From the NCBI GenBank assembly GCA_000004985.1, contig GG738858.1: DNA of 64,000 nt; one strand, written 5' to 3'. Below, piece after piece: positions 6,001 through 64,000 of this stretch. The DNA is from Naegleria gruberi (taxonomy: Eukaryota). Numbering within the stretch: the stretch's first letter is position 1; every line of letters starts with the position of its first letter. A program made the translations under genes and the position numbers. Below the pieces are notes generated by a model. It worked only from the letters and a program-made list of their open reading frames with translations, searched no databases and was not told where the DNA came from.

Positions 6001-9000
6001 NNNNNNNNNNNNNNNNNNNNNNNNNNNNNNNNNNNNNNNNNNNNNNNNNNNNNNNNNNNNNNNNNNNNNNNNNNNNNNNNNNNNNNNNNNNNNNNNNNNN
6101 NNNNNNNNNNNNNNNNNNNNNNNNNNNNNNNNNNNNNNNNNNNNNNNNNNNNNNNNNNNNNNNNNNNNNNNNNNNNNNNNNNNNNNNNNNNNNNNNNNNN
6201 NNNNNNNNNNNNNNNNNNNNNNNNNNNNNNNNNNNNNNNNNNNNNNNNNNNNNNNNNNNNNNNNNNNNNNNNNNNNNNNNNNNNNNNNNNNNNNNNNNNN
6301 NNNNNNNNNNNNNNNNNNNNNNNNNNNNNNNNNNNNNNNNNNNNNNNNNNNNNNNNNNNNNNNNNNNNNNNNNNNNNNNNNNNNNNNNNNNNNNNNNNNN
6401 NNNNNNNNNNNNNNNNNNNNNNNNNNNNNNNNNNNNNNNNNNNNNNNNNNNNNNNNNNNNNNNNNNNNNNNNNNNNNNNNNNNNNNNNNNNNNNNNNNNN
6501 NNNNNNNNNNNNNNNNNNNNNNNNNNNNNNNNNNNNNNNNNNNNNNNNNNNNNNNNNNNNNNNNNNNNNNNNNNNNNNNNNNNNNNNNNNNNNNNNNNNN
6601 NNNNNNNNNNNNNNNNNNNNNNNNNNNNNNNNNNNNNNNNNNNNNNNNNNNNNNNNNNNNNNNNNNNNNNNNNNNNNNNNNNNNNNNNNNNNNNNNNNNN
6701 NNNNNNNNNNNNNNNNNNNNNNNNNNNNNNNNNNNNNNNNNNNNNNNNNNNNNNNNNNNNNNNNNNNNNNNNNNNNNNNNNNNNNNNNNNNNNNNNNNNN
6801 NNNNNNNNNNNNNNNNNNNNNNNNNNNNNNNNNNNNNNNNNNNNNNNNNNNNNNNNNNNNNNNNNNNNNNNNNNNNNNNNNNNNNNNNNNNNNNNNNNNN
6901 NNNNNNNNNNNNNNNNNNNNNNNNNNNNNNNNNNNNNNNNNNNNNNNNNNNNNNNNNNNNNNNNNNNNNNNNNNNNNNNNNNNNNNNNNNNNNNNNNNNN
7001 NNNNNNNNNNNNNNNNNNNNNNNNNNNNNNNNNNNNNNNNNNNNNNNNNNNNNNNNNNNNNNNNNNNNNNNNNNNNNNNNNNNNNNNNNNNNNNNNNNNN
7101 NNNNNNNNNNNNNNNNNNNNNNNNNNNNNNNNNNNNNNNNNNNNNNNNNNNNNNNNNNNNNNNNNNNNNNNNNNNNNNNNNNNNNNNNNNNNNNNNNNNN
7201 NNNNNNNNNNNNNNNNNNNNNNNNNNNNNNNNNNNNNNNNNNNNNNNNNNNNNNNNNNNNNNNNNNNNNNNNNNNNNNNNNNNNNNNNNNNNNNNNNNNN
7301 NNNNNNNNNNNNNNNNNNNNNNNNNNNNNNNNNNNNNNNNNNNNNNNNNNNNNNNNNNNNNNNNNNNNNNNNNNNNNNNNNNNNNNNNNNNNNNNNNNNN
7401 NNNNNNNNNNNNNNNNNNNNNNNNNNNNNNNNNNNNNNNNNNNNNNNNNNNNNNNNNNNNNNNNNNNNNNNNNNNNNNNNNNNNNNNNNNNNNNNNNNNN
7501 NNNNNNNNNNNNNNNNNNNNNNNNNNNNNNNNNNNNNNNNNNNNNNNNNNNNNNNNNNNNNNNNNNNNNNNNNNNNNNNNNNNNNNNNNNNNNNNNNNNN
7601 NNNNNNNNNNNNNNNNNNNNNNNNNNNNNNNNNNNNNNNNNNNNNNNNNNNNNNNNNNNNNNNNNNNNNNNNNNNNNNNNNNNNNNNNNNNNNNNNNNNN
7701 NNNNNNNNNNNNNNNNNNNNNNNNNNNNNNNNNNNNNNNNNNNNNNNNNNNNNNNNNNNNNNNNNNNNNNNNNNNNNNNNNNNNNNNNNNNNNNNNNNNN
7801 NNNNNNNNNNNNNNNNNNNNNNNNNNNNNNNNNNNNNNNNNNNNNNNNNNNNNNNNNNNNNNNNNNNNNNNNNNNNNNNNNNNNNNNNNNNNNNNNNNNN
7901 NNNNNNNNNNNNNNNNNNNNNNNNNNNNNNNNNNNNNNNNNNNNNNNNNNNNNNNNNNNNNNNNNNNNNNNNNNNNNNNNNNNNNNNNNNNNNNNNNNNN
8001 NNNNNNNNNNNNNNNNNNNNNNNNNNNNNNNNNNNNNNNNNNNNNNNNNNNNNNNNNNNNNNNNNNNNNNNNNNNNNNNNNNNNNNNNNNNNNNNNNNNN
8101 NNNNNNNNNNNNNNNNNNNNNNNNNNNNNNNNNNNNNNNNNNNNNNNNNNNNNNNNNNNNNNNNNNNNNNNNNNNNNNNNNNNNNNNNNNNNNNNNNNNN
8201 NNNNNNNNNNNNNNNNNNNNNNNNNNNNNNNNNNNNNNNNNNNNNNNNNNNNNNNNNNNNNNNNNNNNNNNNNNNNNNNNNNNNNNNNNNNNNNNNNNNN
8301 NNNNNNNNNNNNNNNNNNNNNNNNNNNNNNNNNNNNNNNNNNNNNNNNNNNNNNNNNNNNNNNNNNNNNNNNNNNNNNNNNNNNNNNNNNNNNNNNNNNN
8401 NNNNNNNNNNNNNNNNNNNNNNNNNNNNNNNNNNNNNNNNNNNNNNNNNNNNNNNNNNNNNNNNNNNNNNNNNNNNNNNNNNNNNNNNNNNNNNNNNNNN
8501 NNNNNNNNNNNNNNNNNNNNNNNNNNNNNNNNNNNNNNNNNNNNNNNNNNNNNNNNNNNNNNNNNNNNNNNNNNNNNNNNNNNNNNNNNNNNNNNNNNNN
8601 NNNNNNNNNNNNNNNNNNNNNNNNNNNNNNNNNNNNNNNNNNNNNNNNNNNNNNNNNNNNNNNNNNNNNNNNNNNNNNNNNNNNNNNNNNNNNNNNNNNN
8701 NNNNNNNNNNNNNNNNNNNNNNNNNNNNNNNNNNNNNNNNNNNNNNNNNNNNNNNNNNNNNNNNNNNNNNNNNNNNNNNNNNNNNNNNNNNNNNNNNNNN
8801 NNNNNNNNNNNNNNNNNNNNNNNNNNNNNNNNNNNNNNNNNNNNNNNNNNNNNNNNNNNNNNNNNNNNNNNNNNNNNNNNNNNNNNNNNNNNNNNNNNNN
8901 NNNNNNNNNNNNNNNNNNNNNNNNNNNNNNNNNNNNNNNNNNNNNNNNNNNNNNNNNNNNNNNNNNNNNNNNNNNNNNNNNNNNNNNNNNNNNNNNNNNN

Positions 9001-12000
9001 NNNNNNNNNNNNNNNNNNNNNNNNNNNNNNNNNNNNNNNNNNNNNNNNNNNNNNNNNNNNNNNNNNNNNNNNNNNNNNNNNNNNNNNNNNNNNNNNNNNN
9101 NNNNNNNNNNNNNNNNNNNNNNNNNNNNNNNNNNNNNNNNNNNNNNNNNNNNNNNNNNNNNNNNNNNNNNNNNNNNNNNNNNNNNNNNNNNNNNNNNNNN
9201 NNNNNNNNNNNNNNNNNNNNNNNNNNNNNNNNNNNNNNNNNNNNNNNNNNNNNNNNNNNNNNNNNNNNNNNNNNNNNNNNNNNNNNNNNNNNNNNNNNNN
9301 NNNNNNNNNNNNNNNNNNNNNNNNNNNNNNNNNNNNNNNNNNNNNNNNNNNNNNNNNNNNNNNNNNNNNNNNNNNNNNNNNNNNNNNNNNNNNNNNNNNN
9401 NNNNNNNNNNNNNNNNNNNNNNNNNNNNNNNNNNNNNNNNNNNNNNNNNNNNNNNNNNNNNNNNNNNNNNNNNNNNNNNNNNNNNNNNNNNNNNNNNNNN
9501 NNNNNNNNNNNNNNNNNNNNNNNNNNNNNNNNNNNNNNNNNNNNNNNNNNNNNNNNNNNNNNNNNNNNNNNNNNNNNNNNNNNNNNNNNNNNNNNNNNNN
9601 NNNNNNNNNNNNNNNNNNNNNNNNNNNNNNNNNNNNNNNNNNNNNNNNNNNNNNNNNNNNNNNNNNNNNNNNNNNNNNNNNNNNNNNNNNNNNNNNNNNN
9701 NNNNNNNNNNNNNNNNNNNNNNNNNNNNNNNNNNNNNNNNNNNNNNNNNNNNNNNNNNNNNNNNNNNNNNNNNNNNNNNNNNNNNNNNNNNNNNNNNNNN
9801 NNNNNNNNNNNNNNNNNNNNNNNNNNNNNNNNNNNNNNNNNNNNNNNNNNNNNNNNNNNNNNNNNNNNNNNNNNNNNNNNNNNNNNNNNNNNNNNNNNNN
9901 NNNNNNNNNNNNNNNNNNNNNNNNNNNNNNNNNNNNNNNNNNNNNNNNNNNNNNNNNNNNNNNNNNNNNNNNNNNNNNNNNNNNNNNNNNNNNNNNNNNN
10001 NNNNNNNNNNNNNNNNNNNNNNNNNNNNNNNNNNNNNNNNNNNNNNNNNNNNNNNNNNNNNNNNNNNNNNNNNNNNNNNNNNNNNNNNNNNNNNNNNNNN
10101 NNNNNNNNNNNNNNNNNNNNNNNNNNNNNNNNNNNNNNNNNNNNNNNNNNNNNNNNNNNNNNNNNNNNNNNNNNNNNNNNNNNNNNNNNNNNNNNNNNNN
10201 NNNNNNNNNNNNNNNNNNNNNNNNNNNNNNNNNNNNNNNNNNNNNNNNNNNNNNNNNNNNNNNNNNNNNNNNNNNNNNNNNNNNNNNNNNNNNNNNNNNN
10301 NNNNNNNNNNNNNNNNNNNNNNNNNNNNNNNNNNNNNNNNNNNNNNNNNNNNNNNNNNNNNNNNNNNNNNNNNNNNNNNNNNNNNNNNNNNNNNNNNNNN
10401 NNNNNNNNNNNNNNNNNNNNNNNNNNNNNNNNNNNNNNNNNNNNNNNNNNNNNNNNNNNNNNNNNNNNNNNNNNNNNNNNNNNNNNNNNNNNNNNNNNNN
10501 NNNNNNNNNNNNNNNNNNNNNNNNNNNNNNNNNNNNNNNNNNNNNNNNNNNNNNNNNNNNNNNNNNNNNNNNNNNNNNNNNNNNNNNNNNNNNNNNNNNN
10601 NNNNNNNNNNNNNNNNNNNNNNNNNNNNNNNNNNNNNNNNNNNNNNNNNNNNNNNNNNNNNNNNNNNNNNNNNNNNNNNNNNNNNNNNNNNNNNNNNNNN
10701 NNNNNNNNNNNNNNNNNNNNNNNNNNNNNNNNNNNNNNNNNNNNNNNNNNNNNNNNNNNNNNNNNNNNNNNNNNNNNNNNNNNNNNNNNNNNNNNNNNNN
10801 NNNNNNNNNNNNNNNNNNNNNNNNNNNNNNNNNNNNNNNNNNNNNNNNNNNNNNNNNNNNNNNNNNNNNNNNNNNNNNNNNNNNNNNNNNNNNNNNNNNN
10901 NNNNNNNNNNNNNNNNNNNNNNNNNNNNNNNNNNNNNNNNNNNNNNNNNNNNNNNNNNNNNNNNNNNNNNNNNNNNNNNNNNNNNNNNNNNNNNNNNNNN
11001 NNNNNNNNNNNNNNNNNNNNNNNNNNNNNNNNNNNNNNNNNNNNNNNNNNNNNNNNNNNNNNNNNNNNNNNNNNNNNNNNNNNNNNNNNNNNNNNNNNNN
11101 NNNNNNNNNNNNNNNNNNNNNNNNNNNNNNNNNNNNNNNNNNNNNNNNNNNNNNNNNNNNNNNNNNNNNNNNNNNNNNNNNNNNNNNNNNNNNNNNNNNN
11201 NNNNNNNNNNNNNNNNNNNNNNNNNNNNNNNNNNNNNNNNNNNNNNNNNNNNNNNNNNNNNNNNNNNNNNNNNNNNNNNNNNNNNNNNNNNNNNNNNNNN
11301 NNNNNNNNNNNNNNNNNNNNNNNNNNNNNNNNNNNNNNNNNNNNNNNNNNNNNNNNNNNNNNNNNNNNNNNNNNNNNNNNNNNNNNNNNNNNNNNNNNNN
11401 NNNNNNNNNNNNNNNNNNNNNNNNNNNNNNNNNNNNNNNNNNNNNNNNNNNNNNNNNNNNNNNNNNNNNNNNNNNNNNNNNNNNNNNNNNNNNNNNNNNN
11501 NNNNNNNNNNNNNNNNNNNNNNNNNNNNNNNNNNNNNNNNNNNNNNNNNNNNNNNNNNNNNNNNNNNNNNNNNNNNNNNNNNNNNNNNNNNNNNNNNNNN
11601 NNNNNNNNNNNNNNNNNNNNNNNNNNNNNNNNNNNNNNNNNNNNNNNNNNNNNNNNNNNNNNNNNNNNNNNNNNNNNNNNNNNNNNNNNNNNNNNNNNNN
11701 NNNNNNNNNNNNNNNNNNNNNNNNNNNNNNNNNNNNNNNNNNNNNNNNNNNNNNNNNNNNNNNNNNNNNNNNNNNNNNNNNNNNNNNNNNNNNNNNNNNN
11801 NNNNNNNNNNNNNNNNNNNNNNNNNNNNNNNNNNNNNNNNNNNNNNNNNNNNNNNNNNNNNNNNNNNNNNNNNNNNNNNNNNNNNNNNNNNNNNNNNNNN
11901 NNNNNNNNNNNNNNNNNNNNNNNNNNNNNNNNNNNNNNNNNNNNNNNNNNNNNNNNNNNNNNNNNNNNNNNNNNNNNNNNNNNNNNNNNNNNNNNNNNNN

Positions 12001-15000
12001 NNNNNNNNNNNNNNNNNNNNNNNNNNNNNNNNNNNNNNNNNNNNNNNNNNNNNNNNNNNNNNNNNNNNNNNNNNNNNNNNNNNNNNNNNNNNNNNNNNNN
12101 NNNNNNNNNNNNNNNNNNNNNNNNNNNNNNNNNNNNNNNNNNNNNNNNNNNNNNNNNNNNNNNNNNNNNNNNNNNNNNNNNNNNNNNNNNNNNNNNNNNN
12201 NNNNNNNNNNNNNNNNNNNNNNNNNNNNNNNNNNNNNNNNNNNNNNNNNNNNNNNNNNNNNNNNNNNNNNNNNNNNNNNNNNNNNNNNNNNNNNNNNNNN
12301 NNNNNNNNNNNNNNNNNNNNNNNNNNNNNNNNNNNNNNNNNNNNNNNNNNNNNNNNNNNNNNNNNNNNNNNNNNNNNNNNNNNNNNNNNNNNNNNNNNNN
12401 NNNNNNNNNNNNNNNNNNNNNNNNNNNNNNNNNNNNNNNNNNNNNNNNNNNNNNNNNNNNNNNNNNNNNNNNNNNNNNNNNNNNNNNNNNNNNNNNNNNN
12501 NNNNNNNNNNNNNNNNNNNNNNNNNNNNNNNNNNNNNNNNNNNNNNNNNNNNNNNNNNNNNNNNNNNNNNNNNNNNNNNNNNNNNNNNNNNNNNNNNNNN
12601 NNNNNNNNNNNNNNNNNNNNNNNNNNNNNNNNNNNNNNNNNNNNNNNNNNNNNNNNNNNNNNNNNNNNNNNNNNNNNNNNNNNNNNNNNNNNNNNNNNNN
12701 NNNNNNNNNNNNNNNNNNNNNNNNNNNNNNNNNNNNNNNNNNNNNNNNNNNNNNNNNNNNNNNNNNNNNNNNNNNNNNNNNNNNNNNNNNNNNNNNNNNN
12801 NNNNNNNNNNNNNNNNNNNNNNNNNNNNNNNNNNNNNNNNNNNNNNNNNNNNNNNNNNNNNNNNNNNNNNNNNNNNNNNNNNNNNNNNNNNNNNNNNNNN
12901 NNNNNNNNNNNNNNNNNNNNNNNNNNNNNNNNNNNNNNNNNNNNNNNNNNNNNNNNNNNNNNNNNNNNNNNNNNNNNNNNNNNNNNNNNNNNNNNNNNNN
13001 NNNNNNNNNNNNNNNNNNNNNNNNNNNNNNNNNNNNNNNNNNNNNNNNNNNNNNNNNNNNNNNNNNNNNNNNNNNNNNNNNNNNNNNNNNNNNNNNNNNN
13101 NNNNNNNNNNNNNNNNNNNNNNNNNNNNNNNNNNNNNNNNNNNNNNNNNNNNNNNNNNNNNNNNNNNNNNNNNNNNNNNNNNNNNNNNNNNNNNNNNNNN
13201 NNNNNNNNNNNNNNNNNNNNNNNNNNNNNNNNNNNNNNNNNNNNNNNNNNNNNNNNNNNNNNNNNNNNNNNNNNNNNNNNNNNNNNNNNNNNNNNNNNNN
13301 NNNNNNNNNNNNNNNNNNNNNNNNNNNNNNNNNNNNNNNNNNNNNNNNNNNNNNNNNNNNNNNNNNNNNNNNNNNNNNNNNNNNNNNNNNNNNNNNNNNN
13401 NNNNNNNNNNNNNNNNNNNNNNNNNNNNNNNNNNNNNNNNNNNNNNNNNNNNNNNNNNNNNNNNNNNNNNNNNNNNNNNNNNNNNNNNNNNNNNNNNNNN
13501 NNNNNNNNNNNNNNNNNNNNNNNNNNNNNNNNNNNNNNNNNNNNNNNNNNNNNNNNNNNNNNNNNNNNNNNNNNNNNNNNNNNNNNNNNNNNNNNNNNNN
13601 NNNNNNNNNNNNNNNNNNNNNNNNNNNNNNNNNNNNNNNNNNNNNNNNNNNNNNNNNNNNNNNNNNNNNNNNNNNNNNNNNNNNNNNNNNNNNNNNNNNN
13701 NNNNNNNNNNNNNNNNNNNNNNNNNNNNNNNNNNNNNNNNNNNNNNNNNNNNNNNNNNNNNNNNNNNNNNNNNNNNNNNNNNNNNNNNNNNNNNNNNNNN
13801 NNNNNNNNNNNNNNNNNNNNNNNNNNNNNNNNNNNNNNNNNNNNNNNNNNNNNNNNNNNNNNNNNNNNNNNNNNNNNNNNNNNNNNNNNNNNNNNNNNNN
13901 NNNNNNNNNNNNNNNNNNNNNNNNNNNNNNNNNNNNNNNNNNNNNNNNNNNNNNNNNNNNNNNNNNNNNNNNNNNNNNNNNNNNNNNNNNNNNNNNNNNN
14001 NNNNNNNNNNNNNNNNNNNNNNNNNNNNNNNNNNNNNNNNNNNNNNNNNNNNNNNNNNNNNNNNNNNNNNNNNNNNNNNNNNNNNNNNNNNNNNNNNNNN
14101 NNNNNNNNNNNNNNNNNNNNNNNNNNNNNNNNNNNNNNNNNNNNNNNNNNNNNNNNNNNNNNNNNNNNNNNNNNNNNNNNNNNNNNNNNNNNNNNNNNNN
14201 NNNNNNNNNNNNNNNNNNNNNNNNNNNNNNNNNNNNNNNNNNNNNNNNNNNNNNNNNNNNNNNNNNNNNNNNNNNNNNNNNNNNNNNNNNNNNNNNNNNN
14301 NNNNNNNNNNNNNNNNNNNNNNNNNNNNNNNNNNNNNNNNNNNNNNNNNNNNNNNNNNNNNNNNNNNNNNNNNNNNNNNNNNNNNNNNNNNNNNNNNNNN
14401 NNNNNNNNNNNNNNNNNNNNNNNNNNNNNNNNNNNNNNNNNNNNNNNNNNNNNNNNNNNNNNNNNNNNNNNNNNNNNNNNNNNNNNNNNNNNNNNNNNNN
14501 NNNNNNNNNNNNNNNNNNNNNNNNNNNNNNNNNNNNNNNNNNNNNNNNNNNNNNNNNNNNNNNNNNNNNNNNNNNNNNNNNNNNNNNNNNNNNNNNNNNN
14601 NNNNNNNNNNNNNNNNNNNNNNNNNNNNNNNNNNNNNNNNNNNNNNNNNNNNNNNNNNNNNNNNNNNNNNNNNNNNNNNNNNNNNNNNNNNNNNNNNNNN
14701 NNNNNNNNNNNNNNNNNNNNNNNNNNNNNNNNNNNNNNNNNNNNNNNNNNNNNNNNNNNNNNNNNNNNNNNNNNNNNNNNNNNNNNNNNNNNNNNNNNNN
14801 NNNNNNNNNNNNNNNNNNNNNNNNNNNNNNNNNNNNNNNNNNNNNNNNNNNNNNNNNNNNNNNNNNNNNNNNNNNNNNNNNNNNNNNNNNNNNNNNNNNN
14901 NNNNNNNNNNNNNNNNNNNNNNNNNNNNNNNNNNNNNNNNNNNNNNNNNNNNNNNNNNNNNNNNNNNNNNNNNNNNNNNNNNNNNNNNNNNNNNNNNNNN

Positions 15001-38306: not shown

Positions 38307-39165
38307 AATTTTTTAAACAAAGAATAAACATTTTATTTGTATATTTACACTACATTAAATAATAAATTAATAATATTAATTAAATTAAATATTAAATTAA
38401 TAATATTAATTAAATTAAATAATAATACTAATATTAATTAATAAATTAAATATTAAATATTAAAGATAATAATTATTATTTTTTAATCTATTTTCATAAT
38501 GTAATAATTGTAATTCAAAACCAGTATTAGGTTGTACAATATTTCTTTTTTGTTTAACGAATTGTAAAGTATTAAAATAAGACCATTGATTTTTTCTCAT
38601 TAAATATGCAATTAAAATGGAAGCACTTCTACTTTTACCTTTCATACAATGTATTAAAACATTTTCATTATTATTTAAACATTTATCAATATAATTAAAT
38701 GATTCATCAAATGTATGATCTATTTGTTCATCTGACATGTCATATAAATGTAAATTTAAATATGAAAATCCTTCATTAGGATAAAATGGTTCTAATGATT
38801 TTACACAAGTTACAATATTTGTTATATTATGATTTTTTAATTCAGGTACATTCATTGCATCATTTATATCTCCTAAATATAAATTATCAGTTATTTTAGA
38901 GGCTAAAAAATTATTTGAATATGGTAAATAATATCTAACTTGTTGATGGGCTTGATAATAATATGATAATACTGATCGGAATATTGATGATTTTGTATAT
39001 TTTACATTATTATTTGTATTATTATTTGTATTGGTATTAATAGTTTGATCATCAGTTGATTGATCAGTAATAGTTGTTGTTGTTGGAGTGGTTGGAGTGG
39101 TTGGAGTATTATTTGAAGCCATTTTTTTTTTAAATGAATTTATTAATAGAAATATCTATTTATTG
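38307..39165. repeat. Tandem direct repeat, copy A (high-identity core: 3' flank + DUSP CDS + ~45 bp upstream of its ATG)
   Basis: Near-identical to 39986..40835. The AT-rich block 38327..38459 is base-for-base identical to 39999..40138. The copy is truncated on the left by the N gap. Confidence 0.9.
38460..39122 (-). CDS. Dual-specificity protein phosphatase (DUSP family), copy 1, 220 aa, single exon
   Basis: ORF with the catalytic motif VLIHCMKGKSRSASILIAYLM (HCxxGxxRS P-loop of Cys-based PTP/DUSP). The N-terminus has a Thr/Pro/Asn-rich low-complexity region. The ATG is preceded by an A10 run. Confidence 0.85.
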   Translation of the reverse strand: MASNNTPTTPTTPTTTTITDQSTDDQTINTNTNNNTNNNVKYTKSSIFRSVLSYYYQAHQQVRYYLPYSNNFLASKITDNLYLGDINDAMNVPELKNHNITNIVTCVKSLEPFYPNEGFSYLNLHLYDMSDEQIDHTFDESFNYIDKCLNNNENVLIHCMKGKSRSASILIAYLMRKNQWSYFNTLQFVKQKRNIVQPNTGFELQLLHYENRLKNNNYYL

Positions 39166-39719: not shown

Positions 39720-39769
39720 NNNNNNNNNNNNNNNNNNNNNNNNNNNNNNNNNNNNNNNNNNNNNNNNNN
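39720..39769. other. Assembly gap (50 N), plus a single ambiguous base at 39812
   Basis: N-run inside the diverged 5' flank of DUSP copy 1. Confidence 0.99.
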
Positions 39770-39985
39770 TATCAAAAGAGAAAGATTAACATGTTAGAGC
39801 TCAATATCTCTATGGCTATATNTCAGCTGTTCAATAGAGATGATATATTGTATAATGGAATCTGTTGCTACTACTACATGGTGCTCTTACTAATTTTGAA
39901 GAAGTGCATCTAATACTACTAAAACTATATTGTTGAGTTTAAAACACAAGAATATCTTTGAAAATCTAGTTGACACACTAATAAT

Positions 39986-50296: not shown

Positions 50297-51878
50297 GTAT
50301 TATTATTAGTATTACTAGTATTAGTATTATTATTATTATTGTTAATATTTTTAATATAATTTTTTAATAATTGAATAGATTGATCAAATTTCTTTTGTTT
50401 AAAATATAAATGTGATAAAATTAAAGTTGGAATTTCTGAATTATTATACTAAATAAATTAAATAATTCATTTTGAATAATTTTTTCACATTCATCAAATT
50501 TACCTAAATGTAATTGTAATAAACAATTATTTAAAGTAACACCTCTAATTTGTTCAGTTGTTAATTTACCTTGTAATTTATCTTGATAAGCATGTTTTAA
50601 TTTCTTTTGAGCTTCCAAATCAAAATGTGTTGTATTACCATTATTAGAATTACTATTATTAGTAGTTACATCTAAAATAGCAACAAGATTATTAGCAGCA
50701 ACTGCACCTGCAACTGTATCTTTAGATTGTGTAAAAACTTGTTCAAATAATTTTTTAGAAACATCAACTTGTCCATTTAAATATTTAACATAAGCTAATT
50801 GTACTAAAATGGAAGAAATTTCATTTGTATCTTCAATTTTACATAATTTTTGTGCAAATTCTAAATATTTCTCAGCTTGTTCATAATCTTTTAATCCAAT
50901 AGATNNNNNNNNNNNNNNNNNNNNNNNNNNNNNNNNNNNNNNNNNNNNNNNNNNNNNNNNNNNNNNNNNNNNNNNNNNNNNNNNNNNNNNNNNNNNNNNN
51001 NNNNNNNNNNNNNNNNNNNNNNNNNNNNNNNNNNNNNNNNNNNNNNNNNNNNNNNNNNNNNNNNNNNNNNNNNNNNNNNNNNNNNNNNNNNNNNNNNNNN
51101 NNNNNNNNNNNNNNNNNNNNNNNNNNNNNNNNNNNNNNNNNNNNNNNNNNNNNNNNNNNNNNNNNNNNNNNNNNNNNNNNNNNNNNNNNNNNNNNNNNNN
51201 NNNNNNNNNNNNNNNNNNNNNNNNNNNNNNNNNNNNNNNNNNNNNNNNNNNNNNNNNNNNNNNNNNNNNNNNNNNNNNNNNNNNNNNNNNNNNNNNNNNN
51301 NNNNNNNNNNNNNNNNNNNNNNNNNNNNNNNNNNNNNNNNNNNNNNNNNNNNNNNNNNNNNNNNNNNNNNNNNNNNNNNNNNNNNNNNNNNNNNNNNNNN
51401 NNNNNNNNNNNNNNNNNNNNNNNNNNNNNNGCTAATAATAATTCATTAGTATTATTTAATTCATTTCTATTAGATTGAATAATTTTCAAGGCTTCCTCTG
51501 CTTTATTTAATCTATACAAGGAATAAATCTTTTGAAAATTAGTGGATTGCAAATTTTCAATAACCTTGTTAAATTCTCCTTTTTGAATTTGATTAACAAT
51601 TTTTAATTGTTTTAATTGATTATTATTCTTATCATTGGATAATACTATTATTATTATTATATGATGAAGATGATCAAGATGGTAATGTTGATGATTAATA
51701 TGAAAGACGGAGAAGAAGATTAATACAGATAAGATTAAAATGATGATGAATATATATTCAACTACTACTAATATAACAACATACACTTTTCCAATGTAGA
51801 ATGAATTAAATCTTCATCTTCATCTTCGATGGCTTGTTTTAATTGTTGATAATTGGACAAGAGATTCTTTGGTGCCAT
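49347..51878 (-). CDS. srp72: Signal recognition particle 72 kDa subunit (SRP72), multi-segment model: exon 1 51785..51878, intron 51645..51784, exon 2 from 51644 into the gap, then 50894 down to 49347; interrupted by an N gap and three frame disruptions
   Basis: Exon 1 (MAPKNLLSNYQQLKQAIEDEDEDLIHSTLEK + GTATGT donor) was found by hand. The TPR-like blocks IYSLYRLNKAEEALKIIQS, AGAVAANNLVAIL, ELFNLFSIII, IPTLILSHLYFKQKKFDQSIQLLKNYIK and MKIDDMNSALEML...AEKYCKDL align along SRP72. The C-terminal tail KKKQRKKRRNKLP...SRWETKKKHS...KKKKKK* matches the SRP72 basic RNA-binding tail. The supplied ORFs 49347..49679, 49646..50143, 50421..50618 and 50881..51786 are fragments of this gene in different frames. 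Confidence 0.75.
50262..50345. repeat. (ATT)n/(AAT)n trinucleotide microsatellite inside the SRP72 coding region (poly-Asn tract)
   Basis: A perfect (att)9 at 50267..50293 flanked by imperfect att/agt repeats. The reading frame changes across it. Confidence 0.85.
50895..51430. other. Assembly gap (536 N) inside the SRP72 gene
   Basis: N-run. Confidence 0.99.
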
Positions 51879-52521: not shown

Positions 52522-53481
52522 ATGACTGACGACGATTCACAAGAAGAAGGAAATTACGATCAAATTAAATGTGTTGTTGTAGGTGATGGTGCTGTTGGTA
52601 AAACATGTAGGTTTTAAAATTCCCGCGCTTTTAATCATCTTTTTAAACTTTGTAAAATAATAATAATAATAATTACTGATAGGTTTATTATTATCATATA
52701 GTAATAATGAATTTCCAGATGGTATGTATTTCTATTTAATTAAGTATCATTGAATGTGATAATGATGATGATAATGATGATTATTGTTATTGTTATTAAT
52801 TAATTAATTTAGAATATATTCCAACTATTTGTGACAATTATAGTAGTAATGTTGAATATAAAGGACATACTGTATCATTGGCACTGTGGGATACAGCTGG
52901 ACAAGAAGGTATTTATTTTACAATAATTGTAATCTCTTTAACATCATTATTTTAACATGTATTAATTCATAATAATATTCATGATAACAAAATAACATAA
53001 CAAAATAATATAACATAACAACATAATAGAATATGATCAATTACGTCCATTATCATATCCAGATACAAATGTATTTTTGGTTTGTTTTTCAGTTGTCAAT
53101 CCATCATCATTAGAAAATGTTAAAAGTAAATGGGTACCTGAATTGAAACAATCATGTCCAGATACACCCATTGTTCTAGTTGGATCTAAAATTGATTTAA
53201 GAAATGATCCAGAACAAAAAAGGAAACTCCAACAAAAAGCTTCACAACCTCTAACTGAAAAAGAAGGAGAACAAATGAAAGTAGAAATTGGTGCTAATTT
53301 CTATAGAGAATGTTCAGCAAAGACAATGGAAGGACTTGCAGATGTATTCGAATGTGTCATTGAGGCACATTATCAACATTTATTATCAAAGAAGGATACT
53401 GAAAGTTCAAATAATCAAAATTCTAAATCTGGTAAAAAAGGTGGAAAAGATAAGAAAAAGAAAGATTGTTTAATCATGTAA
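52522..53481 (+). CDS. Rho-family small GTPase (Rac-like) with polybasic tail and CAAX box (CLIM), 223 aa; join(52522..52606,52683..52721,52813..52908,53030..53481)
   Basis: Exon 1 [28 protein letters not shown] (P-loop), GTAGGT donor. Exon 2 [19 protein letters not shown] donor. Exon 3 [32 protein letters not shown] (switch II DTAGQE), GTATTT donor. Exon 4 is the supplied ORF 53077..53481 (...[14 protein letters not shown]...[15 protein letters not shown]). All three introns (76, 91 and 121 nt) are AT-rich, end in AG, and keep the frame. Confidence 0.85.
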
Positions 53482-53654
53482 TATTTAATACATTTTAATA
53501 TATTTTAATATTTAAAATAATTGTTTTTTTTAGTGTTTTTAAAAATCATTGTTGTAATCCATGATGAATTAATATGAGTGAAACTTTGCCAAGTCAATGT
53601 TGATGAGTCATAAAATGTTTCATGTGAAAGCAAACTTTCAAAAAGAGAAGGAAA

Positions 53655-53670
53655 GGGGATCCTCTAGAGT
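53655..53670. other. Cloning-vector polylinker remnant (GGGGATCCTCTAGAGT = SmaI half-site + BamHI + XbaI of pUC18/19-type MCS) at a contig end
   Basis: Exact 16-nt match to the pUC multiple cloning site downstream of a blunt SmaI insertion. It sits immediately before the N gap and is GC-rich relative to its surroundings. Confidence 0.7.
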
Positions 53671-54048
53671 NNNNNNNNNNNNNNNNNNNNNNNNNNNNNN
53701 NNNNNNNNNNNNNNNNNNNNNNNNNNNNNNNNNNNNNNNNNNNNNNNNNNNNNNNNNNNNNNNNNNNNNNNNNNNNNNNNNNNNNNNNNNNNNNNNNNNN
53801 NNNNNNNNNNNNNNNNNNNNNNNNNNNNNNNNNNNNNNNNNNNNNNNNNNNNNNNNNNNNNNNNNNNNNNNNNNNNNNNNNNNNNNNNNNNNNNNNNNNN
53901 NNNNNNNNNNNNNNNNNNNNNNNNNNNNNNNNNNNNNNNNNNNNNNNNNNNNNNNNNNNNNNNNNNNNNNNNNNNNNNNNNNNNNNNNNNNNNNNNNNNN
54001 NNNNNNNNNNNNNNNNNNNNNNNNNNNNNNNNNNNNNNNNNNNNNNNN
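53671..54048. other. Assembly gap (378 N)
   Basis: N-run. The supplied ORF 53638..56127 runs through it as X residues. Confidence 0.99.
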
Positions 54049-56127
54049 TCTTTTATGATTTGATTTAAAATTTAAATTTAAAGAAAATAAATCTTCACTT
54101 TTTAAAATTTTAGAATTTCCATTTTTAATTAAAATATTTTTCATTGTTAAAGGTAAAATTAAATTTTTTAATTCATTTAAATTTAAATTTAAATTTTCTA
54201 AAATTTCAAAACATTTAATTTCCAAATTAGTATTAAATAATAATAAAATTAAACATTGATATTCATTTACATGTAAATCATATTCACTTCCAAATCTGGC
54301 AATTAATTGACATGTACCAAGTGAATGTATCCATTTTAATATTCTATTTTGAGTAATTGAATTATAAAAATTTAAAAATAAATTTAAACAATTATTAAAT
54401 TCATTTGGTAATTTTAATTTTAAATTTAATTGAATATAAATGGAAGGCCAAATTCCATTTGTTAAAATTTGTGGATTAAATTCTATTTTATTATTATCAT
54501 TAGTTATATTATTATTTCCATTTATATTATTAATTAAATAATTTTTAAATTTAAATTTTAATTCATTTGAATTATTTAAATCTTTAATCATTCCTTCTAA
54601 TTTAAAAGTAAATGAATTTCCCATTTTTAATTTTAATTTATAAATTAATTGTTTTTCCAATTCAATTTCTTGATTTTTAATTAATTTTTTACATAAAAAT
54701 CTTTTAAAAAATTCTAAAAATAAATCTTTATCATTTAAATAGGAAAATAATAATAAAATATTTTCAATATTTAAATTAAATTCAAAATATTTAACTAGAA
54801 TTTCAGGAAAATCTAAATTTTCATTTACTAAATTTGTAAATGACTGAAATAAAAATTGTTGAAAATAAAAATTATCTTTAAATTCAAATTTAATTAAATT
54901 ACTAAATTTAGTATTTAATTTTAATAAATTTGTAATATATTCATTTGAATCATTTTTAATTAATTCTTTTCCTTCTTTAATTATTACTTGTTTCATTGAA
55001 TTTGCTAATTTTGGTAATTCATTTACAATTTCAAATAATTTAAATAAGATTTTTAATTCTTTAATATTAAAATTATTAAATATTTCAATTGATTCTAATA
55101 ATAAAATTTCTAAATTATTTAAAATTAATTCTTGATTTAAATTTTTAAATAATTTTTTAATGGTTGAATTTGGAAAGAAAAAGGAATTTTTATCTTCAAA
55201 AATTAAAATATTTTCAATTTCTTTAAATAAATAATTATTTTCTAATTTCCATTTTTGATTTAATTGTTTAAAATATAAATTTGATAAATTTAAAAATTCA
55301 TTTTCAAAATCCAAGTAAATTGAATTTTCCTTATATAGATTTAATTCATTTGATAATTCAATTAAATATAAAATTCCATTTTTTAATAAATTTTCATTAA
55401 TAATTTCAAAATTTCTTTTTTTTTCATATTTTTCCAAAATTAATTTAGAAAAATTATTTTTAATTTCCAAATAAATAATTTTAAAATAATTTTCAATTGC
55501 AATTTGTTTTAAATTTGATTTTTGAAATTGTTCTATAAAAGATCTTTCAATGTAATTAAATAATTTTGTAAAATATTTAATAATAATTAAATAATCTTTC
55601 CATTTTTGTATACATTGATTTAAAAATAAATCTCCATTTAAATTTTTTAATTGATTTAAATTATTATTTAAAAATTTTATAATAATTTTTTCATATTTAA
55701 TATAAATTAATTCTTTTGAAATTTCTAAATTTAAACATAAATTATAAATGGATGAATAAATAATTAAATAGTCTTGACTTGATGAATTTAAATTTTCTAA
55801 AAATTGTAAAATTCCTTTTTTAATTATTTTCCATTGTTTTTTAAATAATTCATATTCATCATTGTTATTATTATCACTACTAGATGAATTATTTGAAATA
55901 CTATTGAAAAGTTTAATTTTCTTTTCTTGATGAATAAATTCATTACTTGTTGATTCAAAAGTTGATGATTGTAATAAATTAGAGTTGACTTGATGATGAT
56001 CGGAATGTGATGGTGATGATAAGGAACATGATGACAATGTATTATTGATAGTATCCTCATCATCATCTAAACAAGAAGATAATTGACAAGATTTTCGTTT
56101 TTTAGGAACATTTCTTCTGAAATTCAT
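54049..56127 (-). CDS. Cullin-family protein (E3 ubiquitin-ligase scaffold), N-terminal ~690 aa present; C-terminal cullin-homology/neddylation region lost in the gap
   Basis: Open frame from the ATG at 56127 (MNFRRNVPKKRK...). Cullin signature blocks: DKDLFLEFFKRFLCKKLI (cf. DKDVFE.YYK..LA.RLL), GNSFTFKLEGMIKDL (cf. CG..FTSKLEGMF.DM) and ILKWIHSLGTCQLIARFGSEYDLHVNEYQCLILLLFN (cf. L.W...LG.c.L...F......L.VS..Q..VLLLFN). Confidence 0.7.
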
Positions 56128-63356: not shown

Positions 63357-63556
63357 ATGAAAAGTAAAAATATGTTCAATTTCTATGATAATCAATCTCT
63401 AGGTCAATACTTGTGAGATTACAATTAATTTCGGGCTTTACCTCGCTAGAAAGTGATCCGAGTTAACACAGTAAAAAATGATTTCCAATTCATCTCCAAT
63501 TTATTACAGCAAAATAAGCGTTCCACACTATTGAGAAAAAGCCTTGATCAAAAAAA

Positions 63557-64000
63557 ATGTCAACAACAACAACAATTAACAATATGGAAGTTAGCAAAAC
63601 TGCCCGCACTGTAATGATTGTTTGTATGCTATTGATGGGTATGACACTCATTCATGGCGCAACAACAGCCATTCAACTTAAAAGTTCAGGTGATACTGTG
63701 ACTGGATCCGTCAGCAAGGGAATTATGAATATGTATTATATTAATGTTGATAGTGTTAGTTCAATGTCTGTCCAATTCACCAACACTTATTCATCATCAT
63801 CTGTTAATGTTTATATCAAAGCTAATCAACCACCAACTACCTATAATTATGATAGTATTATTACCTATCCAGGTGTTTCAAAGAGTATTATTACATTGAA
63901 GAATTCAACTCTCACTCAACCATATTATATTGGTGTTTATGGTCTTGGTAGTTCTACTAATTATTATACTTTACAAGTTAGTGTCATCTCTGGACAAGAT
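63557..64000 (+). CDS. 5' part of a gene for a secreted protein (signal peptide + Ser/Thr/Tyr-rich beta-type domain), truncated by the window end
   Basis: aaaaaaATG at 63557. Hand translation: MSTTTTINNMEVSKTARTVMIVCMLLMGMTLIHGATTAIQLKSSGDTVTGSVSKGIMNMYYINVDSVSSMSVQFTNTYSSSSVNVYIKANQPPTTYNYDSIITYPGVSKSIITLKNSTLTQPYYIGVYGLGSSTNYYTLQVSVISGQD... The frame stays open to the last base. Confidence 0.55.
   Translation, partial: MSTTTTINNMEVSKTARTVMIVCMLLMGMTLIHGATTAIQLKSSGDTVTGSVSKGIMNMYYINVDSVSSMSVQFTNTYSSSSVNVYIKANQPPTTYNYDSIITYPGVSKSIITLKNSTLTQPYYIGVYGLGSSTNYYTLQVSVISGQD

Follow-up and report, generated by a model that had tools for sequence, protein, structure and literature searches.

Within the 64,000-nt stretch of Naegleria gruberi DNA that we analyzed (the window), 16 bases at positions 53655-53670 raise the question of whether they belong to the chromosome at all or were carried into the assembly from a cloning vector. 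They stand at a contig edge, where the + strand reads ...caaactttcaaaaagagaaggaaa and then GGGGATCCTCTAGAGT (53655-53670), the next base being already N. We addressed the question by comparing them with the polylinker of the pUC vectors, with the DNA on either side, and with the syntenic locus of N. lovaniensis.

A polylinker segment beside the rac gene

As a reference, we used the 57-nt polylinker GAATTCGAGCTCGGTACCCGGGGATCCTCTAGAGTCGACCTGCAGGCATGCAAGCTT, which was checked against database records, where it is found at full length and 100% identity in plasmid records from unrelated hosts. In GQ149343.1 it is located inside a pUC18-type lacZ-alpha cassette. Its EcoRI side faces the lac operator and the M13 reverse-primer site there, and its HindIII side faces the complements of the M13 -20 and -40 primers. 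The initial annotation had called the 16-mer an exact match to the pUC18/19 multiple cloning site downstream of the SmaI site, and the comparison bore this out, with 16/16 bases identical to polylinker positions 20-35. Its parts are the SmaI half-site GGG, the overlapping BamHI site GGATCC, the XbaI site TCTAGA, and the opening two bases of the SalI site. SmaI, whose site CCC/GGG occupies positions 17-22, cuts after position 19. Base 53654 is an A, and the vector has a C there, so the match to the polylinker is broken before 53655. Judged from the sequence, a match starting at the first vector base past the SmaI cut is the signature of a blunt insert in a SmaI-cut vector, and it places the junction of insert and vector between 53654 and 53655.

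Among plasmid records deposited as 'natural' (here GQ149343.1, GQ149346.1, and NZ_CP104070.1), several have the pUC polylinker intact; GQ149343.1 has the pUC18-type lacZ-alpha cassette as well, and NZ_CP104070.1 has a fosmid-type arm, GTGGGATCCTCTAGAG.... The pUC polylinker, the lacZ-alpha sequence, and the fosmid-type arm in these records are probably cloning-vector sequence too.

To the left of the junction, the DNA is that of N. gruberi. A four-exon gene for a Rho/Rac GTPase (52522-53481, + strand) was spliced by hand, and the resulting Rac protein shares 100% identity with 'rho family small GTPase [Naegleria gruberi]' (P0001) over 223 amino acids (aa), and 91% with its N. lovaniensis counterpart. 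We found no other contig on record that encodes the exact N. gruberi Rac protein. The rac stop codon is at 53479-53481, and the 16-mer lies 3' of the gene, as first described, with rac ending 173 bases upstream at 53481. These 173 bases (53482-53654, + strand) are contiguous with the rac stop, have a G+C content of 21%, and show no similarity to the polylinker; we take them as the end of the insert and as the genuine 3' flank of rac. Their last bases, immediately left of 53655 on the + strand, are gagaaggaaa. The 29-mer just left of the junction had no match among metagenome contigs. On the right, the N run that had been described as following directly does start at 53671, and it extends to 54048 as a scaffold gap of 378 N (53671-54048).

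The composition and the frequency of the 16-mer set it apart from its surroundings. Its G+C fraction is 0.56, compared with 0.21 for the preceding 173 bases and 0.15 for the 300 bases past the gap. With up to 2 mismatches permitted, the window still yields a single match, and 0/100 dinucleotide-preserving shuffles yield one. With the composition of the window (25.5% G+C across 23,690 real bases), the zero-order probability of the 16-mer is 9.6e-12 per position, and the chance expectation is 4.5e-7 per window and 8e-4 to 5e-3 per 41-Mb genome, both strands counted. No SmaI or SalI site was found across the whole window, and the only adjacent pair of BamHI and XbaI sites is the one within 53655-53670. 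The other nine gap edges of the window are free of polylinker sequence, and a 10-mer search of the window with the wider pUC lacZ/M13 region returned only four A+T-rich chance matches, none of them near a gap edge.

These figures bear on the reading under which the 16-mer truly belongs to the NEG-M chromosome, whether as a chance likeness or as integrated laboratory vector DNA, with GAGAAGGAAAGGGGATCCTCTAGAGT running on contiguously into genomic DNA inside the gap. An occurrence by chance would have to overcome an expectation of 8e-4 to 5e-3 per 41-Mb genome and, in addition, to fall exactly at one of the ten contig edges, to start exactly at the SmaI cut, and to have a composition foreign to its flanks. 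NEG-M is not known to have been transformed. We assign this reading a vanishingly small probability: the chance calculation, the exact start at the SmaI cut, the place at a contig end, and a composition unlike that of the flanks exclude genuine genomic sequence for practical purposes, and all credible readings of 53655-53670 are artefacts.

How a vector remnant may have reached the contig end

The genome of N. gruberi NEG-M was sequenced by the Sanger method (PMC9928731, Table 1) and is hosted at the Joint Genome Institute (JGI) (PMC5963838). In a published JGI protocol of that time, sheared DNA is blunt-ligated into the SmaI site of pUC18 for 3-kb libraries, and 'a very similar process' with pMCL200 as the vector gives the 8-kb libraries; inserts are gel-selected at 3 kb or 8 kb, and library quality is controlled by colony PCR with the pUC M13 -28 and -40 primers, a pass needing >90% full-size inserts (PMC1978522). 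From this general protocol, we infer that SmaI-cut pUC18 or pMCL200 was used for the N. gruberi project itself. The first reading of the locus as vector contamination from a SmaI-cloned shotgun library agrees with the exact SmaI boundary, with a Sanger project at JGI, and with the SmaI/pUC18 protocol in use there. The analysis shows that the 16 bases are identical to the polylinker, start exactly at the SmaI cut, and abut the gap, that the organism is N. gruberi, that its genome was sequenced by Sanger technology, and that SmaI/pUC18 cloning was general practice at JGI; 53655-53670 is almost certainly a cloning-vector remnant in the Sanger shotgun consensus of NEG-M, derived from a SmaI-cut vector with a pUC polylinker.

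The particular read, primer, and vector, and the reason why clipping failed, are our reconstruction. Sheared and end-repaired genomic DNA would have been blunt-ligated into the SmaI-cut vector (pUC18, or pMCL200), and the insert of one clone would have ended at 53654. A read primed from the SalI/HindIII side of the vector, which would be the M13 -20/-40 side in pUC18, would pass through ...GTCGACTCTAGAGGATCCCC and then enter the insert, leftwards on the minus strand. Primed at -20 or -40 in the GQ149343.1 cassette, a read has 41 or 61 vector bases, respectively, before the insert, ending in ...GTCGACTCTAGAGGATCCCC, and these 41-61 vector bases of a forward-primer read close with ...ACTCTAGAGGATCCCC. 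The end of the contig in the window, when reverse-complemented, gives ACTCTAGAGGATCCCC and then TTTCCTTCTC..., i.e., the last 16 vector bases and then the insert. A raw read from a pUC18 or pMCL200 library would extend further into the vector (...GCATGCCTGCAGGTCGACTCTAGAGGATCCCC); its first 25-45 vector bases may have been removed, either in quality clipping or through a match to the vector, with the last 16 escaping. This single read would have set the end of the contig because no other read reached beyond 53654, and the scaffolder would then have put in the gap of 378 N, sized from mate pairs. The genomic sequence GAGAAGGAAA would in truth run on into A+T-rich intergenic DNA, not into GGGGATCCTCTAGAGT.

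Instead, the vector bases could stand at the 3' end of their read, which would then have passed through the whole of a short insert and on into the opposite arm of the vector. Such a read would leave the same junction pattern, and the consensus gives no read direction. However, read-through within about 800 bases should be rare with size-selected inserts of 3 kb or 8 kb that are >90% full-size (PMC1978522), and every read starts in vector. We therefore regard this origin as unlikely, and its consequence is the same, since the 16 bases are an artefact under either origin.

VecScreen reports weak matches from a score of 16 at the terminus of a sequence and from 23 internally. Its cut-offs for strong matches are at least 24 for terminal and at least 30 for internal ones (PMC5996228). 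With these score bands, a submission screen would not flag a 16-base match that lies beside an N run within a scaffold.

The cullin gene and the reading frame across the gap

On the far side of the gap lies a cullin gene whose 3' end is cut off by it (54049-56127, minus strand), as supported by Pfam and by collinearity with N. lovaniensis. The open reading frame (ORF) at 54049-56127 matches the Pfam Cullin profile PF00888 over profile positions 1-620/620 with an E value of 3.8e-96. The N. gruberi protein ends at the gap with ...NLNFKSNHKR, which is aligned to ...NVNFTSNNRR in the N. lovaniensis orthologue, and the orthologue goes on for 96 residues, IKVPNLV...ANVYRYLA*, that include a Cullin_Nedd8 domain (PF10557, E 4.6e-29). 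By this comparison, about 291 bp encoding the cullin C-terminus are predicted to be hidden in the 378-N gap.

A mechanical ORF at 53638-56127 nevertheless extends this gene through the gap to a tail, TLEDPLSFSF* (53638-53670, minus strand), which is made up of 16 vector bases followed by 3' flank of rac. The tail is joined to the cullin ORF only because 378 is 3 x 126, so that the N codons keep the frame; any frame reads through a gap of this length. The tail has no counterpart in the orthologue, and a tblastx search with 53482-53670 found nothing of the cullin C-terminus or of Cullin_Nedd8. The initial annotation had set the tail aside as vector and junction sequence and not cullin, and we concur, the true C-terminus of the orthologue (Cullin_Nedd8, ...YRYLA*) falling in the gap. 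The 'ORF tail' is a product of mechanical translation through N codons in frame and nothing more.

The order and the orientation of the genes are the same at the N. lovaniensis locus (L001) as in the window: an SRP72-like TPR gene, rac, the gene for an 835-aa cullin-like protein, a gene for a 323-aa protein, and a CH-domain gene. The two loci are collinear at the DNA level in their coding parts; in the 3' flank of rac, the intergenic DNA is too diverged to align with the syntenic locus, and this comparison is silent on the sequence past 53654.

Between rac and the cullin gene, the N. lovaniensis locus has a further gene (11731-12510, minus strand) for a protein of 238-259 aa without a Pfam match, which may be membrane-anchored, judging from a hydrophobic stretch. 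The only sequence similar to it in the N. gruberi window is at 63521-63985 (+ strand), about 10 kb off, with 41% identity over 160 aa and an E value of 1e-25. The 378-N gap is too small for this gene together with the cullin C-terminus; either the gene has changed place or is a paralogue, or the size of the gap is underestimated.

Other gaps are found in the same window. Positions 1-38306 are a single unbroken N run that makes up 60% of the window, the real sequence starting at 38307; the run may reflect masking or else a scaffold gap of very large, roughly fosmid, size. A second gene broken by a gap (50905-51430) is located at 50881-51786 on the minus strand and encodes an SRP72-like TPR protein, by synteny with 7064-9530 of the N. 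lovaniensis locus (PF17004, SRP_TPR_like). The 301-aa ORF listed at 50881-51786 is likewise a mechanical read-through of N. A gap of 50 N at 39720-39769 has the conventional size of a placeholder, unlike the estimated sizes elsewhere, and a lone ambiguous N is at 39822, 52 bases past it.

In a search of 5.8 billion proteins, a 384-residue query from this cullin, whose low complexity swamped the candidates, returned no deposited N. gruberi cullin and one distant cullin only. Probably no protein model covers the cullin segment, because an identical protein would have nearly all of the query words, although with a query of such low complexity this is not proof. Within the reach of that search, weakened as it was by the low-complexity query, the vector-derived tail has apparently not made its way into any deposited protein. 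The public annotation may lack the cullin gene or have it in truncated form.

Consequences and comparison with known cloning vectors

The segment at 53655-53670 is an ordinary assembly artefact and not a biological feature, and it holds no biological novelty. Its importance is one of data hygiene only: 53655-53670 should be cut from the N. gruberi scaffold or masked there, and ORFs or gene models that cross the in-frame gap of 378 N should be rejected. The cullin stands in the assembly without its neddylation domain, which carries the risk of wrongly inferring a truncated N. gruberi cullin.

Among known vectors, the fosmid pCC1FOS offers another source for the 16-mer, namely an end read from a clone made at the blunt Eco72I site and not in a SmaI-cut plasmid. 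Libraries in pCC1FOS are common in JGI Sanger projects. This vector presumably carries the same polylinker arm past its cloning site, and we would expect an end read to leave the insert followed by GTGGGATCCTCTAGAGT, i.e., by GTG-GGATCC-TCTAGA-GT. Of the 16 bases, 15/16 (GGGATCCTCTAGAGT) also fit pCC1FOS, and one plasmid record (H14) has GTGGGATCCTCTAGAGTCGACCTGCAGGCATGCAAGCTT at 100%. Cloning in pCC1FOS is at Eco72I, the site being GGATCC-CACGTG-GGATCC (PMC8778148). However, when the Eco72I junction, the insert followed by GTGGGATCC, was looked for at 53655, it was not found, and the window reads AGGGGATCC. The half-site GTG is not intact, as the window has A-G-GGGATCC and the fosmid arm G-T-GGGATCC. 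A fosmid end read needs two base-call errors or two lost vector bases, whereas the SmaI reading accounts for 16/16 bases without any extra event. We consider pCC1FOS a very improbable source and rejected a fosmid vector origin as less parsimonious than a SmaI-cut plasmid. In comparison with the window, then, the pCC1FOS arm has GGGATCCTCTAGAGT downstream of the cloning site in common, and it differs in the GTG half-site, which is expected of the fosmid and is absent from the window, where AG precedes GGGATCC.

The SmaI-cut plasmid vectors show a closer likeness. The vector of the JGI 8-kb libraries, pMCL200, has a pUC-type polylinker, and a remnant of it would be expected to read identically over these 16 bases. 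The remnant is too short at 16 bases to separate pUC18 from pUC19, M13mp18/19, or pMCL200, all of which have this polylinker in common. With pUC18, pUC19, and M13mp18-19, all 16 bases are alike over a stretch that opens at the SmaI cut, spans BamHI and XbaI, and enters SalI, the difference being that only these 16 bases are left in the window. Its position at a contig end is also the one expected of an unclipped read end in Sanger shotgun assemblies, as in contamination of the UniVec class.
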